Positions 39,853-51,880 are shown, numbered from the stretch's first letter. The stretch: DNA of 64,000 nucleotides from Minisyncoccota bacterium (GCA_046350795.1 JAXLZT010000001.1:2411-66410); one strand, 5' to 3'. Notes: generated from the sequence alone by a model not told the origin. Translations and numbers: made by a program.

Positions 39853-40656
39853 ATGGGGACAAACGGAAAATCAAATCCGGACCGCTCCAAAGAGAGCGAC
39901 TCCGTGGATGTCTGGAAGCAGTACAAAGAGAATCCGAGCCAAGAGCTACGGAACAAACTCATACTCATGCATTACGGGGTTCTACTCGGCCACGCAAAAC
40001 GACAACACATCAGACTGAGGAAAATACTTTCCGTTGAAGAACTCGCGTCATACGGGCTCGATGGACTGATAGATGCCATTAATGCGTTTGATCCTGAACG
40101 TGGCATCAGGTTTGAGACATTCTGTTCACCCAGGATCTGGGGCTCGATGATAGACGGAATCCGCGAGATGGACTGGATCCCTCGCCTAGTCCGATCTAGA
40201 ACACGCAAGATTGAATCTGCGAGGGATCGTCTCAAACTGTCCTTGGGTCGAGATCCAACCCCCGAGGAAATACGAGAGGAACTCAAACTCAGCCCTGAAC
40301 AATATGAGAAAGAGAGTGGTGATTCACAACCAAAACACACCAACTCCCTCTCTCGTGAAGTGTGTGGGAATCAGCAAGGTGGCCGTGAGGTCTCACAAAT
40401 AGACTTCATCGAAGACGATGGATGTGAGAAGCCTGGAGATGAAGCCGATAGACAGGACCTGAGAAGATTCATGACTCGGGGGCTAGACCAGAAAAGTAGG
40501 CTCATCATCATCCTTCATCACTTCGAAGGCTTCAGCATGAAGGAGGTTGGTGAAATACTCTTCATGAGTGAGTCTCGGATATCTCAAATGCACACCGCAG
40601 CAATAGACGTGATTAGGTCAAACCTCGCACTGAAAGAGCTGTTGGACAAGCGTTGA
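39853..40656 (+). CDS. RNA polymerase sigma factor, sigma-70 family (FliA/WhiG-like group 3), high-GC island
   Basis: Region 2 (YGLDGLIDAINAFDPERGIRFETF), region 3, region 4 HTH (FSMKEVGEILFMSESRISQMHTAAIDVIRSNL); GGAG SD; GC ~55%. Confidence 0.8.
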   Translation: MGTNGKSNPDRSKESDSVDVWKQYKENPSQELRNKLILMHYGVLLGHAKRQHIRLRKILSVEELASYGLDGLIDAINAFDPERGIRFETFCSPRIWGSMIDGIREMDWIPRLVRSRTRKIESARDRLKLSLGRDPTPEEIREELKLSPEQYEKESGDSQPKHTNSLSREVCGNQQGGREVSQIDFIEDDGCEKPGDEADRQDLRRFMTRGLDQKSRLIIILHHFEGFSMKEVGEILFMSESRISQMHTAAIDVIRSNLALKELLDKR

Positions 40657-40678
40657 GAACAAAAAACAAAAACGCCTT

Positions 40679-40710
40679 TGGGCCGCCACGAAAGTGGCGG
40701 CCCATTTCAC
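40679..40710 (+). terminator. Intrinsic terminator (GGGCCGCCAC-gaaa-GTGGCGGCCC)
   Basis: 10-bp GC stem plus ATTTCACAT. Confidence 0.55.
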
Positions 40711-40791
40711 ATCATGTTATTGCCAAAAAAATATCATTGTGATTATATTGTGGGTGAAAAGTACACGCACAACCAACCCAGGAGCAACGAA

Positions 40792-41718
40792 ATGCCCAGC
40801 AAAAGCACCAGTGCAACCAAGTCAGAAAACGGTCAAGAACAGACCGGACAAATGCTCACGGTGGATATCAATCGTATTCGTCCGTTCAAAGAACAGCCGA
40901 GAACGTACTTCGAATCGACAGGTATCACCAACCTATCGAAAAGCATCAGGAACAAGCAGCGCCTCCCGATTTCCGTCATGCGCATTGAGGATGATCCCAG
41001 GCATGACTTCGAAATCATTGACGGAGAGCGTCGATTTCGAGCCGCAAAGGAGGCCGGGGTCAACAGGATTCTCGTTTGGATCAAGACCATCAGAAGCAAA
41101 GATGAGCAGTTCATCGACTCTGTGGTCTCCAACTTCGGACGAGAAAACCACACGGTTTTGGAGAAGGTAAACGCCTTCACTCGACTGCGACAGTGGTACA
41201 GCGCAGAAGAGATCGCTGAGCTGTGTGGTTGTCACTTCACGACCGTCTACCAGTACTTGTCACTTTCGAAGTTGGTGCCGGAAGCGTTGAAGAGGCTCGA
41301 TCCGAGCCTGCCAGAAGATGAGATGCTCAACTTCTCCACAGCAGCAAGACTCGCAACCCTTGATCCAGAGATCCAGCTCGACGTGCTTGAGCAGATCAGT
41401 GGCAAGAAGATGCCACATCGAGAAGTTCGACATTTCGTCCGGGCAAGAGCGCACGAGTCTGGAAAGCTGTCCAGCAGCAAGACGAAACCTGACAAGTATC
41501 GTCACAGACACTGGAACATGTTCACAGGATTTGTGAACCGGAGCGTTCAGGAGGCGAAAAGCATTGCCGACATGCCTGACAGCATGTTCGTGGAGGCTGT
41601 CACATCACGAACGAGAGCAGAAATGGAGTATTTCGAGAAGGAGGCCAACGCCCTCATTCGTGAGATCGAGAAACTCAAGAACAAGGTGATGAGAGCCAAG
41701 AAAACATCCTCGAAGTAG
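40792..41718 (+). CDS. ParB-like protein (ParB/Srx N-domain with GERRFRAA CTP-binding box, HTH, C-terminal coiled coil), high-GC island
   Basis: IIDGERRFRAAKEAG; HTH (SAEEIAELCGCHFTTVYQYL); start set at MPSKS with AGGAG SD. Confidence 0.75.
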   Translation: MPSKSTSATKSENGQEQTGQMLTVDINRIRPFKEQPRTYFESTGITNLSKSIRNKQRLPISVMRIEDDPRHDFEIIDGERRFRAAKEAGVNRILVWIKTIRSKDEQFIDSVVSNFGRENHTVLEKVNAFTRLRQWYSAEEIAELCGCHFTTVYQYLSLSKLVPEALKRLDPSLPEDEMLNFSTAARLATLDPEIQLDVLEQISGKKMPHREVRHFVRARAHESGKLSSSKTKPDKYRHRHWNMFTGFVNRSVQEAKSIADMPDSMFVEAVTSRTRAEMEYFEKEANALIREIEKLKNKVMRAKKTSSK

Positions 41719-42820: not shown

Positions 42821-43015
42821 CTATTTATCCTTAGACACAACCACTAAACCATCTTGTGTCAGAGCCCACACAAGAGATATAACCCAACCAACAACAGTAA
42901 AACCTAGAAAAAAATTCAAAGCAAATATTGCGCCTTTATTTCTTTTGCGCTTATTGAAAGCAATAATACTTGGTAAAAAATAAAATAGTATTAATAATAT
43001 GATAAAAATCAACAT
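42821..43015 (-). CDS. Small membrane protein (64 aa, 2 TM)
   Basis: Hydrophobic ORF. Confidence 0.35.
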   Translation of the reverse strand: MLIFIILLILFYFLPSIIAFNKRKRNKGAIFALNFFLGFTVVGWVISLVWALTQDGLVVVSKDK

Positions 43016-43178
43016 GTAATATATTGTATTATAAGAATAACATGAATGAAAGTGCTGGTCGTATCAAACTAGAACCGTAGTCGGTCAAGCTCGGTAAAGT
43101 TATTTTAGCATCTTTTCGTTTTTCAAATCGATGTATCTTGAGCATATAGAAAAACCGTGCTTATATTAGTTCATATTT

Positions 43179-43919
43179 ATGGAATACAGGAAATGGAAAG
43201 ATAACAACATCATCGTCTGCCTGACAAAAAAAGAGATTGGTATATTCCTGAAGCAAGCAAAATGGGAACTAATAGAGAAGATTATGGTGGAGAAGAGGTG
43301 GAGTCTAGCTGATGTAATGGCGGATCAGAAAAAGGTACTGGAAGTTGTCCAGCCAGTTTCTGAGTCTCTTGCTGAAGACAAGGATGAGGTAGAAATATTT
43401 GTCGCCTTCGACTCGATTGTAGATTTCTACAAATCCGACAGTCTAATATGCTTTCCATTGCGGGCAAACTTCAATACAAGTCGAGATACAATAAATAGTT
43501 TTTCAGAACTAAAGAATTCAATCGAGGAAGCAAGTCCTGATGACATTATTATCTTTGATGGTGTCAACTATCGATCCTTTCAAATGAAACGATACCGAGG
43601 AAAGCTTGAGACTCAGGATATCGGTAAATATATTGTCAATAAGATTGAAGGGTACGGCAACCTAGGCGACCGAAATTTGCTCGTCATTCCACAATCTGAT
43701 CTTCCATTCAATATTGATTTTCATGAGCTGCACGATTTCCTAAAGAACGAGAAGCCACCGATTACCGGACAGGTTCTTGTTGGATTCAACGCCAACAACA
43801 AAGAATTCTTACTTAATCAAGTGTACCCAGACCTGAATACTAGTTCTATCCCCATAAGAGAGTCTGCACAAAAACTATCTAAAGTCTGGAGGAAAATGAA
43901 AAACAATAACGATCAGTAG
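43179..43919 (+). CDS. Hypothetical protein (246 aa), upstream partner of the DUF4238 gene
   Basis: Stop at 43917-43919 followed 2 nt later by the DUF4238 start (operon); GC elevated relative to flanks. Confidence 0.55.
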   Translation: MEYRKWKDNNIIVCLTKKEIGIFLKQAKWELIEKIMVEKRWSLADVMADQKKVLEVVQPVSESLAEDKDEVEIFVAFDSIVDFYKSDSLICFPLRANFNTSRDTINSFSELKNSIEEASPDDIIIFDGVNYRSFQMKRYRGKLETQDIGKYIVNKIEGYGNLGDRNLLVIPQSDLPFNIDFHELHDFLKNEKPPITGQVLVGFNANNKEFLLNQVYPDLNTSSIPIRESAQKLSKVWRKMKNNNDQ

Positions 43920-43921
43920 AT

Positions 43922-44821
43922 ATGCAAAAGCGACACCACACAGTACCTCGTTGCTATCTTGAGCAGTTCATTGATACGAACGGTGATATTTGGAGTCTAG
44001 ATACAAGCAATAAAATATTTAATACTAAACCGAACAACATTCTCGTCGAAAGCCACTTCTACCGGATAACGCTAAAGGACGGGAGTAAAAGTGTGGTTGT
44101 TGAAAATACACTTGCCGACATTGAGGGCAGATACGCCGAAATATTCAGGAATAAACTTTCTCAAGACAAGTTCCTTACATCTGAGGAACGTGCGTATGCG
44201 TCTGTGTTCTTGGCATCTTTACTGCATCGAACTAGACCAAATAGAGAGGGTCTGAGAGGTATGCTCTCTAGCCTCAAGAAATCGGCTGAAGAATGGAGGG
44301 AGCAACTAAAATGGCTTTCACCGGAACAAAAGCGTATCATAAGTGCAACCCCCTCTACTGGAGAGTCCATAAATATTGAGGATCTGGAGAAAGGACTGGA
44401 GAACTGGGATGAGCATCATTCTGCAAGCTTGATTGACCACATTACACACACAGCACAAGTACTTTTCAATATGAATTGGTCAGTCTGGAAGTATCCGTCT
44501 GGTCAAGGAAGCTTCCTAACTTCTGACGACCCGTTCGTGATGAGGCGTCCTGCAGCAGAATTGAAATACGGGAAAAATGCTATCGGTAGCCAAGCGGGTC
44601 TTCTTTTTAAAGATGTAGAGATAACCATTCCCCTTTCCAAAGAGCGCCTTCTCCTAGCCGGTTGGATACTAGAACGCGATAGCTATATCGAAGCTACAGC
44701 TGACACAGCAGAAGCAATGAACCAGCGGACAATTTTGGCTTCGTCAAAACACGTTATCGCTTGCAATAAGAAGCAGTTGGAAGAAGTCATAAAAAAGTAT
44801 CCTCCTCTCCCCAAGCCATAA
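43922..44821 (+). CDS. DUF4238 domain protein (anti-phage-associated family)
   Basis: N-terminus MQKRHHTVPRCYLEQF matches the DUF4238 signature (HH-VP--YL--F). Confidence 0.7.
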   Translation: MQKRHHTVPRCYLEQFIDTNGDIWSLDTSNKIFNTKPNNILVESHFYRITLKDGSKSVVVENTLADIEGRYAEIFRNKLSQDKFLTSEERAYASVFLASLLHRTRPNREGLRGMLSSLKKSAEEWREQLKWLSPEQKRIISATPSTGESINIEDLEKGLENWDEHHSASLIDHITHTAQVLFNMNWSVWKYPSGQGSFLTSDDPFVMRRPAAELKYGKNAIGSQAGLLFKDVEITIPLSKERLLLAGWILERDSYIEATADTAEAMNQRTILASSKHVIACNKKQLEEVIKKYPPLPKP

Positions 44822-44871
44822 CAATCCTGAAATAAAACGCCTCTCGAGTGCGATAACCCATCTCAACCTAG

Positions 44872-44942
44872 CTGCCGATCAGGGACTCGAACCCCAATTA
44901 ACCGCTCCAGAGGCGGTCGTCCTACCATTAGACGAATCGGCA
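44872..44942 (-). tRNA. tRNA-Gln (anticodon CTG)
   Basis: TGCCGAT acceptor, ACCGC-CTCTGGA-GCGGT anticodon arm, GGGGTTCGAGTCCC T-arm. Confidence 0.8.
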
Positions 44943-44995: not shown

Positions 44996-46546
44996 ATGTC
45001 ATCAGAACCAATGAAAAATCTAGCTACAAAGCTAGCCACAATACAGACACAGACACTTTCTTCCGACAAAAGCAAACAAATATTCGAAGTTAACAATCTC
45101 ATAGGTAAAGCGGCCACTTTTTACGAAAAAGTGCGATACCTTGTCGACTACAAAGAAGAGCACACTATTAGACGCAATGCATTGGAGCGCATCCTCAAGA
45201 GAAAGATGGTCATCGAGGGTCGCAACGTCACAGGAGTCTCTATCCTCCAAGAGCTTGCTAGTGGACAATACATTCCTGAAGAAGTAGTAACAGAAGAGCT
45301 GGGCCAAAAGCTAAATAGCATTCTTTTAAAATTCCTGAGGCTCGAAGAGCTGTCCGGCGAGACCGGTGTCGTAGCAAAAAGACTACTTAGCTTTACTGCT
45401 TCAGAGATAGACTACACACTGAGTCACTATCATCATGTCACCGACCATGCCATCATCGATACTTTCTATGAAATGATGCGTAAAAATGTGTCCATGTCTG
45501 GCGTGATGGAGCGAGAGCTGGACAATGCTCTCTACTGCGCATGCCACCGAGCTCTCGTGCGTGCTGATGATGAAGGTCTAGCATATGCTCTATGGCTAAA
45601 GTATGTTCCAGAATGGCACACTATTACTGATGACGGACTTGCTGATCTAGCAAAGCAACTAAAACAAACTATTTCTGCTATAGATGCTTCTGTAAAAAAT
45701 CCTCTACAATGGCGACTCGTACAAAAACTAAAAAACGAAACGATTTATTTTTTGATCGTACGCGAGCTAGTCCAACAATATGGACCAGAATCTAGCCGAA
45801 TACTCGAGACTCCGGGTGAAATGGAAATATTTACACAGTCTTTACTTGAGAAAAAATACAAAAAAGAAAATGAACGTATACGAAAGAGTGGTATTCGCGC
45901 CGTTATTTATCTTTTCTTTACCAAGGCAATATTTGCTCTAGGACTAGAACTACCATATGAATACCTCGTGCTTAGCACAATGAACTACGTGCCTATTTTA
46001 GTAAACTTACTCTTCCCCCCTATCCTTCTTTTTATCGCTACACGCGGAGTGGGATCATTCAACAAAAACAATACAAAAGCAGTACTCACTGGCATGAGAG
46101 AGATGTTTTATGATGGCAAGATAGCAAAGATTAAAATAAAATCACACAGTACTGTCATTGCTTTCATATTTACTCTCGTATATCTAGTCTTTGCTGGTGC
46201 TGTATTTGGCGCGATGGTCTCTGTACTTCATTTCTTCCATTTCAATGTCGTTAGTATAGCCATTTTCCTTTTCTTCTTGGCGCTCGTAAGCTACTTTGCT
46301 TTCCGCATCAGATACAATGCAAAGAGATGGAAAACCACTCAAAAAGAAAATATTATTACACTCATCACCAGCTTGCTTACCGTGCCAGTCATTCGTACAG
46401 GACGATGGCTGAGCCAGTCTTTCTCTAGTATCAATGTGTTTGTCATCATCATGGACTTCATCATTGAAACTCCATTCAAGCTACTGCTCGATTTTTCAAA
46501 TCAATTTATCACTTATTTAAAAGAAAAGACTCCGGAGATTTATTAA
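44996..46546 (+). CDS. Hypothetical membrane protein (516 aa; soluble N-terminal ~300 aa plus 4-5 C-terminal TM)
   Basis: ORF with TM segments. Confidence 0.5.
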   Translation: MSSEPMKNLATKLATIQTQTLSSDKSKQIFEVNNLIGKAATFYEKVRYLVDYKEEHTIRRNALERILKRKMVIEGRNVTGVSILQELASGQYIPEEVVTEELGQKLNSILLKFLRLEELSGETGVVAKRLLSFTASEIDYTLSHYHHVTDHAIIDTFYEMMRKNVSMSGVMERELDNALYCACHRALVRADDEGLAYALWLKYVPEWHTITDDGLADLAKQLKQTISAIDASVKNPLQWRLVQKLKNETIYFLIVRELVQQYGPESSRILETPGEMEIFTQSLLEKKYKKENERIRKSGIRAVIYLFFTKAIFALGLELPYEYLVLSTMNYVPILVNLLFPPILLFIATRGVGSFNKNNTKAVLTGMREMFYDGKIAKIKIKSHSTVIAFIFTLVYLVFAGAVFGAMVSVLHFFHFNVVSIAIFLFFLALVSYFAFRIRYNAKRWKTTQKENIITLITSLLTVPVIRTGRWLSQSFSSINVFVIIMDFIIETPFKLLLDFSNQFITYLKEKTPEIY

Positions 46547-46627
46547 TCAATATAAAGAAAAGCCACCGGGTTAGGGTGGCAGAGGGGTGTCGTGAGTGGT
46601 GAGAAAAGATGACGGTCGATGGCAGGA

Positions 46628-46825
46628 TCAGAGTGGCTGACCAAACCGGTCAAGGGCCAGACAGCCACTGCAATCCTTCCAAAACCCCTGACGCTTGTCG
46701 TAGTGCAGACCGTGTGCCCTCCCAGCATCCCGGTTTTGCGGATTGCTCGGGAGCAAGTCGCTGTCAAACTGAGGCTTGGCGGGCTCAGTCACCTTTTGCG
46801 ACGACAACTCCGCTTTCTTTTCTGA
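46628..46825 (-). CDS. Small hypothetical protein (~66 aa), high-GC islet
   Basis: CAGGAG SD 8 nt upstream of MSEKK; hairpin terminator at 46572-46588 (CCACC-gggttag-GGTGG) plus T-tract. Confidence 0.4.
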   Translation of the reverse strand, partial: SEKKAELSSQKVTEPAKPQFDSDLLPSNPQNRDAGRAHGLHYDKRQGFWKDCSGCLALDRFGQPL

Positions 46826-46878
46826 CATGTGTGTCTCCTGTTTCGTGGTGTGCAAACCCAGAGTAATGTATCACGGTT

Positions 46879-50209: not shown

Positions 50210-50312
50210 GGTTTTGGTAGCATTTTCTGGTTAATTGTAGCATGAAAATTGGGTTGTAAAAAATAAGACCGCCCATTGACAGTACGGGGTTATTTATATA
50301 TTTTCTTACATA

Positions 50313-50420
50313 GAAACCGAGGCGTTGTGTCTCGGTTCAATTGTGTTCACAAGTGGTACTTGTGAACATTTACAGGGTTGCATCAGGTTGTTGCAACCAC
50401 AGTGTGGCTGTGCCACAGAG
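50313..50420 (+). promoter_or_regulatory. Cluster of four consecutive palindromes/hairpins upstream of a high-GC gene (candidate operator array or structured leader)
   Basis: AACCGAG-GCGTTGTGT-CTCGGTT (50315-50337); GTTCACAAGT-GGT-ACTTGTGAAC perfect 23-bp palindrome (50345-50367); GTTGCA-N9-TGCAAC (50377-50397); CCACAGTGTGG / GTGGC-TGT-GCCAC (50397-50416). Confidence 0.5.
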
Positions 50421-50426
50421 GAAAAA

Positions 50427-50945
50427 ATGAACAAGAATCCTATACAGATCGCCAGCGAGGAGTACGTGGCTGATTTCCCCTTCATCGAACACTGGGTGAG
50501 GCAGTACTACAACTCGCTCCGAACAATCACTGTAAAGAGATTGGATTTGGAGGCGCTACAACGGGTGGCCGAACTCTTCTATTTGTTCTTCTTTACTCAC
50601 TGGACACAAATCATCTGTGTCAGCAAAGATAAGAAGATCATGTGTGAGGCTCAGTTTGGCGGAACATTCTTTCACATAACTCCCTGGTGGGCTCCATGGA
50701 GGTGGAAGATTTGCAAAGTCGTAGGACATTCAGCTCTAGACACCCTTATGGGGCTCAATGAGCAAGATCTGGCTCGTGTCGGATATGTACTAATGGTCAC
50801 GGGCATAGACAACGGAAGTGTCAACATCATAATCTACAAGCTTCCAAAAGACCGCACTCTCTCGGAGTTTGTGGATGATGAGAAAGCCAGAATCAAATCC
50901 GAGGCTCGAGTAGAAATTGCTCGTGAAGCTTCGGTTGTTCGATAG
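50427..50945 (+). CDS. Hypothetical protein (172 aa), high-GC island
   Basis: GAGGA SD; Trp-rich (PWWAPWRWK); no family recognised. Confidence 0.5.
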   Translation: MNKNPIQIASEEYVADFPFIEHWVRQYYNSLRTITVKRLDLEALQRVAELFYLFFFTHWTQIICVSKDKKIMCEAQFGGTFFHITPWWAPWRWKICKVVGHSALDTLMGLNEQDLARVGYVLMVTGIDNGSVNIIIYKLPKDRTLSEFVDDEKARIKSEARVEIAREASVVR

Positions 50946-50970
50946 ACGATCGATGTGATTGCCAGACAGT

Positions 50971-51004
50971 GGCCCCAGGGATTTCATCCCTGGGGCCATA
51001 TTTT
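50971..51004. terminator. Bidirectional intrinsic terminator (TGGCCCCAGGGAT-ttc-ATCCCTGGGGCCA)
   Basis: 13-bp stem plus TATTTTTTA. Confidence 0.7.
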
Positions 51005-51880
51005 TTACAACCCCCTCTCGGCTTCAATAAACTCATCTAGGTCACCGGCGAGAACACGGTCTATATCTCGCACCTCTACGTCTGTGCGGTGATCCTTTAC
51101 CATTTGATATGGATGCATCACGTATGAGCGGATCTGACTGCCCCACTCATTTGTCGTGGTCTTACTGACATACATCCCCTTTTCTTTGCTTTTTCTATCT
51201 TCTTCTAATTTTTTATATAGTTTGCCTTGCAATACTTTGAGGGCATGCTCACGATTTTGCGCCTGAGAGCGCTCAGAGTCGGCCTGCGTAGCTAGGCCGG
51301 TCGGAATATGCACCACACGTACGGCTGTCTCACGTTTATTTACATTCTGACCTCCAGGACCGCTAGATCTGGAAAATTCAAATCTCAAATCTTCTTCCGG
51401 AATTTTTAAATCATCATGTCTATCAAATTTTGGTATCACTTCTACCATTGAAAAAGAAGTGTGGCGAAGCTGTTTTGAGCTAAATGGAGAAATGCGCACG
51501 AGACGATGCACACCTGATTCATTTTTTAGAGTGCCGTACACATTTTTACCAGATATTTCTATAGTCACATTACGATACCCACCATGATCATTTTCATTTT
51601 TATGCAATGTCGCACAACCCCAACCTTTTTTCTCAATATATTTTAAATACATTTCTAGTAAGATATGGGAAAAATCCTCAGCATCATCTCCGCCGGCGCC
51701 AGAAAAAATAGTCATTATGGCGTCTCCCTTGTCGTATTTCCCTACCCCCTCTAAATCATTTTTTAAATCTCCTAGCTCGCGAACTTTTGCCTGAGCTTTT
51801 TCTTTATCATTCCAAAAATCGGGTGAGGACATTTGTGCTTCAAGCGAAGCAATCTTTTCCAAAATCTCTTCTTTCTTCAT
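51005..51880 (-). CDS. prfB: Peptide chain release factor 2 (short, 291 aa; no programmed frameshift)
   Basis: SPF tripeptide (RISPFSSKQLRHTSF) and GGQ (SGPGGQNVNK). Confidence 0.85.
   Translation of the reverse strand: MKKEEILEKIASLEAQMSSPDFWNDKEKAQAKVRELGDLKNDLEGVGKYDKGDAIMTIFSGAGGDDAEDFSHILLEMYLKYIEKKGWGCATLHKNENDHGGYRNVTIEISGKNVYGTLKNESGVHRLVRISPFSSKQLRHTSFSMVEVIPKFDRHDDLKIPEEDLRFEFSRSSGPGGQNVNKRETAVRVVHIPTGLATQADSERSQAQNREHALKVLQGKLYKKLEEDRKSKEKGMYVSKTTTNEWGSQIRSYVMHPYQMVKDHRTDVEVRDIDRVLAGDLDEFIEAERGL

Follow-up and report, generated by a model that had tools for sequence, protein, structure and literature searches.

The stretch of DNA analyzed here, called the window, covers 64,000 nucleotides (nt) of a Minisyncoccota bacterium (GCA_046350795.1, JAXLZT010000001.1:2411-66410). 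Next to a tRNA-Gln gene it carries two consecutive genes, here named gene A and gene B, which an earlier note on this DNA had put forward as a candidate anti-phage system. The reading of the pair as a candidate defence cassette was found to be sound. The features that make up the locus are as follows.

43136 to 43178, plus strand: leader with a promoter-like site found by consensus scan (TTGAGC, 18 nt, TATATT, at 43138-43167)
43179 to 43919, plus strand: gene A, an open reading frame (ORF) of 246 amino acids (aa) with an ATG start, member of a PD-(D/E)xK-like family without a name
Within gene A, plus strand: putative catalytic residues E72, D122, Q135 and K137
43922 to 44821, plus strand: gene B, a 299-aa DUF4238 protein of the Rst_DUF4238 / DUF4238-Pers type
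44822 to 44870, no strand: spacer of 49 nt from the stop of B to the tRNA 3′ end, partly conserved with the related locus L092 (blastn, alignment)
44871 to 44942, minus strand: tRNA-Gln(CTG), called by ARAGORN, 55.8 bits with Rfam

The protein encoded by gene B, which according to the ORF call begins with MQKRHHTVPRCYLEQF, gave a full-length match to the Pfam family DUF4238 (PF14022; E=2.5e-38, 132.5 bits against a cut-off of 27, residues 4-283 on model positions 1-280 of 281). The earlier note had assigned this gene to DUF4238 and had named the lack of a profile match as the result that would speak against it; that result did not occur. With the PADLOC model DUF4238-Pers (PDLC03000) the score was lower (E=2.2e-15, 54.9 bits) and the best stretch spanned residues 176-283 only, whereas the DUF4238 protein from the hotspot of the P2-like phage pro483 matched the same model over its full length with 725 bits. 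B was 26% identical to this phage-hotspot protein over ~290 aa, and the two are related. One DUF4238 gene alone has been found to confer strong T7 resistance in E. coli, with its molecular function unknown (Rousset et al., 2022; PMC9122126). An AF2 (AlphaFold) model of B reached a predicted local distance difference test score (pLDDT) of 89.6; no solved structure with a matching fold was found for it, and a PDB sequence search with the DUF4238 family came back empty. The indexed database contained 46 relatives of B, 44-85% identical over most of the length. Judged by its sequence, B adds a new and distant member to a defence family that is already known.

The product of gene A found no match in Pfam, PADLOC, PHROGs or NCBIfam, in agreement with the earlier description of a 246-aa protein lacking any recognizable domain. 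The protein was not an orphan, however, as that description might suggest, and turned out to belong to a PD-(D/E)xK-like family of ~155 clusters. A fast word-indexed search returned A itself, the identical protein being recorded from a metagenome-assembled genome of Candidatus Paceibacterota, and one relative of 80% identity; by exhaustive phmmer, 155 cluster representatives (50% identity) were collected at E<=1e-3 and 116 at E<=1e-10, and the best 150 of the 155 representatives were mostly 200-250 aa long. Scanning 65 members against Pfam yielded zero significant matches, and the PDB sequence search with the A family was likewise empty. Structure prediction of the protein alone, which the earlier note had proposed as a check, was carried out with AlphaFold on 65 sequences and gave a PD-(D/E)xK-like fold with a pLDDT of 96.1 and a predicted template modelling score (pTM) of 0.90. 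In this model a helix (68-83), three strands (89-94, 123-126 and 131-139), a second helix (145-159) and a last strand (166-171) follow one another in the order of the PD-(D/E)xK core, alpha-beta-beta-beta-alpha-beta. Foldseek with the model returned nothing significant.

The signature of the family was read from 151 members. E72 was present in 136 of 137, D122 in 146 of 146 and K137 in 142 of 143, and position 135 was occupied by Q in 125 members and by E in 18, with no other residue. These residues are placed on the first core helix (E72), at the start of the second strand (D122) and on the third strand (135/137), so the PD-(D/E)XK signature is there, though Q stands for the canonical D or E in most members. 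No sequence-profile link to any described PD-(D/E)XK family was obtained with Pfam, PADLOC, PHROG, NCBIfam or PDB sequences. We conclude that gene A belongs to a PD-(Q/E)xK nuclease-like family without a name, for which nuclease activity is predicted; the family appears to be undescribed in the libraries searched.

The genomic surroundings of the A family were surveyed at metagenome loci pulled with a fixed-spacing DNA motif (FQxKxY-19-YG-6-N[LF]), which delivered 61 loci, 40 of them with a true member. Among the 131 neighbours of 38 non-redundant A loci, Pfam recognized HsdS (4), N6_N4 methylase (4), D12 methylase (4) and serine-recombinase domains (3-4) most often, and next HsdR domains (3), SduA_C (3), AbiU2 (3) and GmrSD (2); housekeeping singletons were present too. 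The gene orders at the informative loci are given below.

L044, 156-6582: HsdM, a 259-aa protein, HsdS, A, HsdR, with A inside a type I restriction-modification (R-M) operon
L059: upstream order as in L044; the contig stops ~185 nt past A
L081, 3716-9816: Shedu SduA, HsdS, HsdR, A, then a serine recombinase
L028: the order of L081 as far as the contig reaches, with A directly after hsdR; Shedu SduA is seen in L081
L033, L048 and L085: N6_N4 methylase, 9 nt, A
L032: DUF2779/Cas4-like gene, HNH, A, HNH_2
L056: CBASS SMODS and AGS_C, AbiU2, A

No match to A was found in phage and plasmid records by tblastn, and the motif search detected no member of the family in viral contigs. From sequence and gene context, the A family is nuclease-like and resides in defence and mobile neighbourhoods; it is not a housekeeping family.

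For DUF4238, about 20 close loci, with relatives 44-64% identical to B, were examined together with flanks of up to 5 kb on each side. No A-family ORF was found in these flanks, permissive thresholds included. The neighbours comprised large serine recombinases (6 loci), ParB-methylase fusions and other methylases, along with GIY-YIG, HNH, Hypoth_Ymh, DUF5677, DUF4209 and NUDIX proteins. Those in tight spacing were unrelated to A, namely cyclodipeptide synthase, NUDIX, Hypoth_Ymh, DUF5677, DUF4209 and unannotated proteins. At L007 (5001-9771), and also at L008 and L009, a cyclodipeptide synthase gene (PF16715) overlaps the stop of a 60%-identical DUF4238 gene by 4 nt; next come a gene of MerR-like type and one for a large serine recombinase, and the locus adjoins tmRNA/smpB. 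The synthase in L007-L009 is a different candidate partner of DUF4238, on what is likely an integrative element.

More distant relatives gave a mixed picture. The DUF4238 gene of the Burkholderia YI23 plasmid stands alone, and so does that of phage pro483, which lies between the phage's replication gene (A) and portal gene (Q). On two other plasmids, L098 (2262-3469, B. gladioli) and L100 (1122-3439, Streptomyces), the DUF4238 gene overlaps an upstream gene by 4 nt; the upstream genes encode 73 aa and 455 aa, respectively, are unrelated to A and have no Pfam match. Such overlapping genes hint that a partner of changing identity is often encoded upstream of DUF4238. The A-family profile showed no relation to any upstream or downstream partner of the other DUF4238 genes, and no DUF4238 relatives were found in viral contigs.

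We then considered how closely A and B are tied to each other. The junction reads TAG-AT-ATG, and the 2-nt gap on which the earlier note had based translational coupling is real. The weight laid on it did not hold, since gaps of <=5 nt separate 27% of the co-directional neighbour pairs in the window, and a gap of 2 nt is thus ordinary in this compact genome. The pair as such was recovered elsewhere: in L001 the two proteins are 80% (A) and 78% (B) identical to those of the window, and in L092 the C-terminus of A is 79% and B 85% identical, the gap being 1 nt in both. The similarity of L001 to the window is confined to 43136-44816, that is, the promoter-like site and both genes, with unrelated flanks on either side; it begins at the leader, and position 43136 was taken as the left edge of a conserved cassette (promoter, A and B) of 1.69 kb. 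This cassette is conserved in three diverged lineages (window, L001 and L092). Synonymous sites are saturated (proportion of synonymous differences, pS, 0.66-0.76) at a proportion of nonsynonymous differences (pN) of ~0.09-0.12, full-length A having a pS of 0.76 and a pN of 0.115. The ratio of nonsynonymous to synonymous rates (dN/dS) was ~0.06 for B and ~0.10 for the C-terminal third of A, and the dN values of the two genes were alike (A 0.125, B 0.132). Saturated synonymous sites, low pN and equal dN indicate that A and B are under purifying selection and are co-diverging.

The composition of the pair was unremarkable. The earlier note had described it as richer in G+C (GC) than its flanks, which could not be sustained: the GC is 0.393 for A, 0.441 for B and 0.419 for the pair, against a window mean of 0.398 (standard deviation 0.034), and 28% of the equal-sized windows have a GC equal to or higher than that of the pair. 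Only the AT-rich intergenic stretch of 163 nt and the small gene directly upstream lie below the pair. GC as an island signal was thus rejected, the composition being not atypical.

The site itself proved to be variable. The earlier note had seen the pair beside tRNA-Gln(CTG) at an island insertion site, and this stood as far as the variability of the locus is concerned; because the tRNA gene is on the minus strand, the pair faces its 3′ end, 50 nt past the stop of B. The gene on the other side encodes the following protein.

44996 to 46546, to the right of tRNA-Gln: ORF for a membrane protein of 516 aa

This protein was found in full length in at least 268 clusters from genomes of Paceibacteria and of the Kaiserbacteria type. 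L089 (87% identity) and L090 (63%) keep the order tRNA-Gln, 516-aa gene, pyrG, ftsX, ftsE, prfB and lack A and B; in both, the same tRNA lies upstream of the homologue, adjacent to it in L089 and with one gene between in L090. At the nucleotide level, L089 becomes similar to the window from 44871 onward and L090 from 44865 onward, which is the tRNA 3′ end, and nothing is in common to the left of the tRNA, which indicates that the pair occupies a variable locus there. The 516-aa gene was considered as a third component of the module and rejected, being a core gene of this bacterial group in fixed synteny in relatives that lack the pair. The membrane protein mentioned in the earlier note is therefore present, but without a role in the module, and in the comparative genomics proposed there, the pair was recovered in L001 and L092 and again in L053 (a more distant locus described below); the 516-aa gene occurs in relatives without it.

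No integrase or recombinase family was found among the called genes within ~10 kb on either side of the pair (gene table; identical contigs L002/L003), as the earlier note had stated for integrases. A second copy of the 22-nt tRNA 3′ segment was not found in the window at <=3 mismatches, no notable repeat flanks the pair, and the search for an attachment (att) repeat was empty. A short motif, AACGCCTCTCGAG, common to the spacers was no more frequent than expected by chance. The locus thus shares with tRNA islands the position at the tRNA 3′ end and the absence from relatives; integrase, direct repeat and atypical composition are lacking. In L092, similarity by blastn extends to window position 44892. 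Its region 1176-1330, 3′ of the 85%-identical DUF4238 gene, agrees with the window in the spacer and in ~22 nt that look like the 3′ end of tRNA-Gln; ARAGORN detects no tRNA in this region, and the stretch could represent the remnant of a tRNA gene or an unusual tRNA.

Two further differences from L089 were observed to the right of the tRNA. Between the 516-aa gene and pyrG the window has 332 nt (46547-46878; GC 0.542), which in the 87%-identity relative are just 39 nt; this segment contains a minus-strand ORF of ~66-75 aa preceded by AGGAGA, and Rfam gave no significant match. Between ftsE and prfB lie ~775 nt (50244-51017) that are missing in L089 and include a TTG-start ORF of 206 aa (50325-50945), with a GC of 0.463.

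On the left side, the nearest gene is divergent from gene A and lies 163 nt upstream of it.

42821 to 43015, minus strand: Imm_superinfect (PF14373) membrane gene, 64 aa (Pfam 2.2e-17; PHROG 1039 'immunity to superinfection', 1.6e-19)

Its product belongs to the superinfection-immunity family of T4 Imm. The gene is not beside the pair in L001 and was regarded as a neighbour without conservation with the cassette. Further upstream (39853-41718), a sigma-70-like gene (267 aa; regions 2, 3 and 4) is followed by one for a ParB_N/HTH protein (346 aa). With a GC of 0.49-0.51 and a GC at third codon positions (GC3) of 0.53-0.63, against the window's 0.398, these two are the sole genes of clearly foreign composition near the pair, and they may have been left behind by a plasmid or phage.

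The explanation that we favour, with moderate confidence, is a small anti-phage islet in which two independent, separable defence modules are kept together in one co-transcribed cassette. Independent modules appear most likely because a DUF4238 gene works alone in E. coli, because the two families mostly occur apart, and because tight spacing is normal in this genome. Their distribution is mostly separate: A lacks DUF4238 in 30 of 31 judgeable loci outside the window clade, and the ~20 close DUF4238 loci lack A. One transcript, starting at the promoter ahead of A, would carry both genes, and B would probably be translated by re-initiation past the stop of A. The product of A would be a metal-dependent nuclease of PD-(Q/E)xK type, cutting invading nucleic acid or, in suicide, that of the host, and B would act as the single-gene Rst_DUF4238 does. 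Each protein would most likely work by itself, and the linkage of A and B would then reflect co-mobilization and co-selection, not an obligate partnership. We infer a defence role for both genes, nuclease activity for A and independent action of the two products.

Several observations weigh against this explanation. The adjacency of the pair has been kept through saturating synonymous divergence. Furthermore, the same pairing is seen again far away in the A family: in L053 (1-907) an A-family gene, 35% identical to A, is followed after 1 nt by the start of a DUF4238 gene, so that, with the window, L001 and L092 included, each of the four pairs has a gap of 1-2 nt. The L053 pair lies on a 1.2-kb metagenome contig that ends 68 codons into the DUF4238 ORF. 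This second ORF begins MAGTPKDHYVPQLYLDAF...EKHFYTV, which corresponds to the N-terminus of DUF4238 (31% identity over 55 aa with a pairwise E of 9e-5; E=0.006 by profile). A neighbour-joining tree, which carries no support values, placed L053 far from the window clade with many unpaired members between. DUF4238 is rare, so the recurrence of A followed by DUF4238 is hard to obtain by chance and favours some functional affinity between the two. Other findings speak against the link of A and B: the unpaired relatives L036, L048, L033, L085 and L011 (36-41% identity) are nearer to the window A than L053, and of the 31 A-family loci outside the window clade that could be judged, L053 is the one in which DUF4238 follows A, as scored with a profile that picks the 26%-identical phage protein at 1e-28. 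That count comes from a partial sample of A-family loci, given that the motif fits only ~28% of the family members, and many of the contigs are short.

The opposite view is an obligate two-component system, in which DUF4238 would sense infection and recruit or activate the A nuclease, or the reverse, and neither would work alone. Besides the spacing of 1-2 nt in the four pairs and their recurrence in the L053 branch, it agrees with the single conserved promoter region, which lies upstream of A only, with the equal dN of A and B, and with the movement of the cassette as a unit to a different context in L001; the 4-nt-overlapping upstream genes of distant plasmid DUF4238 genes point the same way, hinting at a variable partner. 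It is at odds with the activity of one DUF4238 gene in E. coli (PMC9122126) and with the lack of the other gene at 30 of the 31 judgeable A loci and at all of the ~20 close DUF4238 loci; short gaps are common in this genome, and the DUF4238 of L053 covers just 68 aa (E of 9e-5 pairwise and 0.006 by profile). Since recurrence in a distant lineage is not easily put down to chance, an obligate sensor-plus-nuclease pair was retained as a possible, less likely explanation. The two-component variant of the earlier note fared accordingly, the cassette in three lineages and the L053 pair speaking for it and the unpaired loci of both families against it; it is possible, and unproven. The same note had named, as a result that would refute its reading, an upstream gene that proved to be an unrelated conserved housekeeping gene found without DUF4238 elsewhere; the A family does occur without DUF4238 in 30 of the 31 outside-clade loci, but it is not housekeeping. 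A tentative broader statement, again less likely, is that the pair is a genuine two-component anti-phage system with a new PD-(Q/E)xK family as the DUF4238 effector. In ultra-small bacteria, members of this family would then act in defence either on their own or as plug-in effectors, having also been built into operons of type I R-M, methylase, AbiU2 and HNH genes.

A role outside defence was judged unlikely. Gene A would then be a selfish or maintenance nuclease (an orphan restriction or homing-type enzyme, or the addiction module of a small mobile cassette) and B a passenger, for which one may cite the frequency of serine recombinases and DNA methylases near both families, the position of A 9 nt after an N6_N4 methylase in L033, L048 and L085, as expected of a type II restriction enzyme, and for B the unknown biochemistry of DUF4238 and a model without a solved-fold match. 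On the other hand, no DNA-methylase family occurs within ~10 kb of the window pair, and a recombinase and an att repeat were both not found at its locus. The neighbours of A include defence genes other than R-M (Shedu, AbiU2, CBASS SMODS and GmrSD), the DUF4238 family has an anti-phage member shown by test (PMC9122126), and viral contigs were without either family. Still further down in probability, and in our view very improbable, is a toxin-antitoxin-like pair in which one product neutralizes the other until infection. A tight two-gene operon with a nuclease-like first gene would suit it, but with 246 and 299 aa both proteins are large, each family mostly occurs without the other, which a toxin would not tolerate unless harmless alone, and beyond DUF4238 neither A nor B matches a family in Pfam, PADLOC, PHROGs or NCBIfam, toxin and antitoxin families included.

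DUF4238 is a validated defence gene without a known mechanism, and a recurrent, coupled nuclease partner would suggest how the phage is blocked or killed. The two-component reading, if true, would provide the first mechanistic handle on DUF4238, and the pairing, if functional, would constitute a new variant of the DUF4238 system; if A and B are merely neighbours, the locus is a small islet of defence genes like others. Independently of any tie to DUF4238, the A family, with ~155 clusters and a textbook catalytic signature and absent from Pfam and PADLOC 2.0, is a candidate for defence catalogues. Defence genes of the candidate phyla radiation are poorly charted, and here a minimal cassette without an integrase occupies a variable site next to a tRNA gene.

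Compared with Rst_DUF4238 (DUF4238-Pers), B is similar in its full-length PF14022 match and in size (299 against 309 aa), and B and the pro483 protein both carry an H-x-V/L-P/S-x-C-Y-L-x-x-F start and the motifs SF(L/I)TSD(D/N)P and LLLAG. B differs in its identity of 26%, in matching the PADLOC model mainly with residues 176-283, and in its host, which belongs to Paceibacterota (candidate phyla radiation), in place of a prophage of enterobacteria. B comes second in a cassette of two genes, unlike the lone pro483 gene between phage genes A and Q, and lies at a chromosomal tRNA-adjacent locus, with no prophage genes or recombinase within ~10 kb. B is hence neither a single-gene system nor placed in a mobile hotspot as Rst_DUF4238 is, and its anti-phage activity is predicted by analogy.

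Within the PD-(D/E)XK superfamily, the nearest known counterparts of A include DUF1780/PA4535 (1y0k), CdiA-CT of B. pseudomallei 1026b (4g6v) and the defence nucleases NucC, Can2/Card1 and Shedu SduA. A differs in the usual Q at the place of the canonical D or E, in an N-terminal hairpin and helical extension of ~65 aa, and in an extra C-terminal beta unit with invariant N204 and P217; it has no attached sensor domain (CARF, SAVED etc.). In the manner of tRNA-linked islands, the cassette abuts the tRNA 3′ end, on a side that varies among three related genomes while the other side is syntenic; unlike them, it lacks an integrase within ~10 kb, a direct repeat of the tRNA 3′ end and an anomalous composition. 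With regard to type II R-M systems, the window A has no adjacent methyltransferase, and an N6_N4 methylase is directly upstream only in L033, L048 and L085. Accessory genes embedded in type I R-M operons, such as PrrC, may offer another comparison: the window copy has no R-M genes nearby and A does not resemble anticodon nucleases of the PrrC type, but other members of the A family are embedded in this way, in L044 with hsdS on one side and hsdR on the other, and in L028 and L081 immediately following hsdR.

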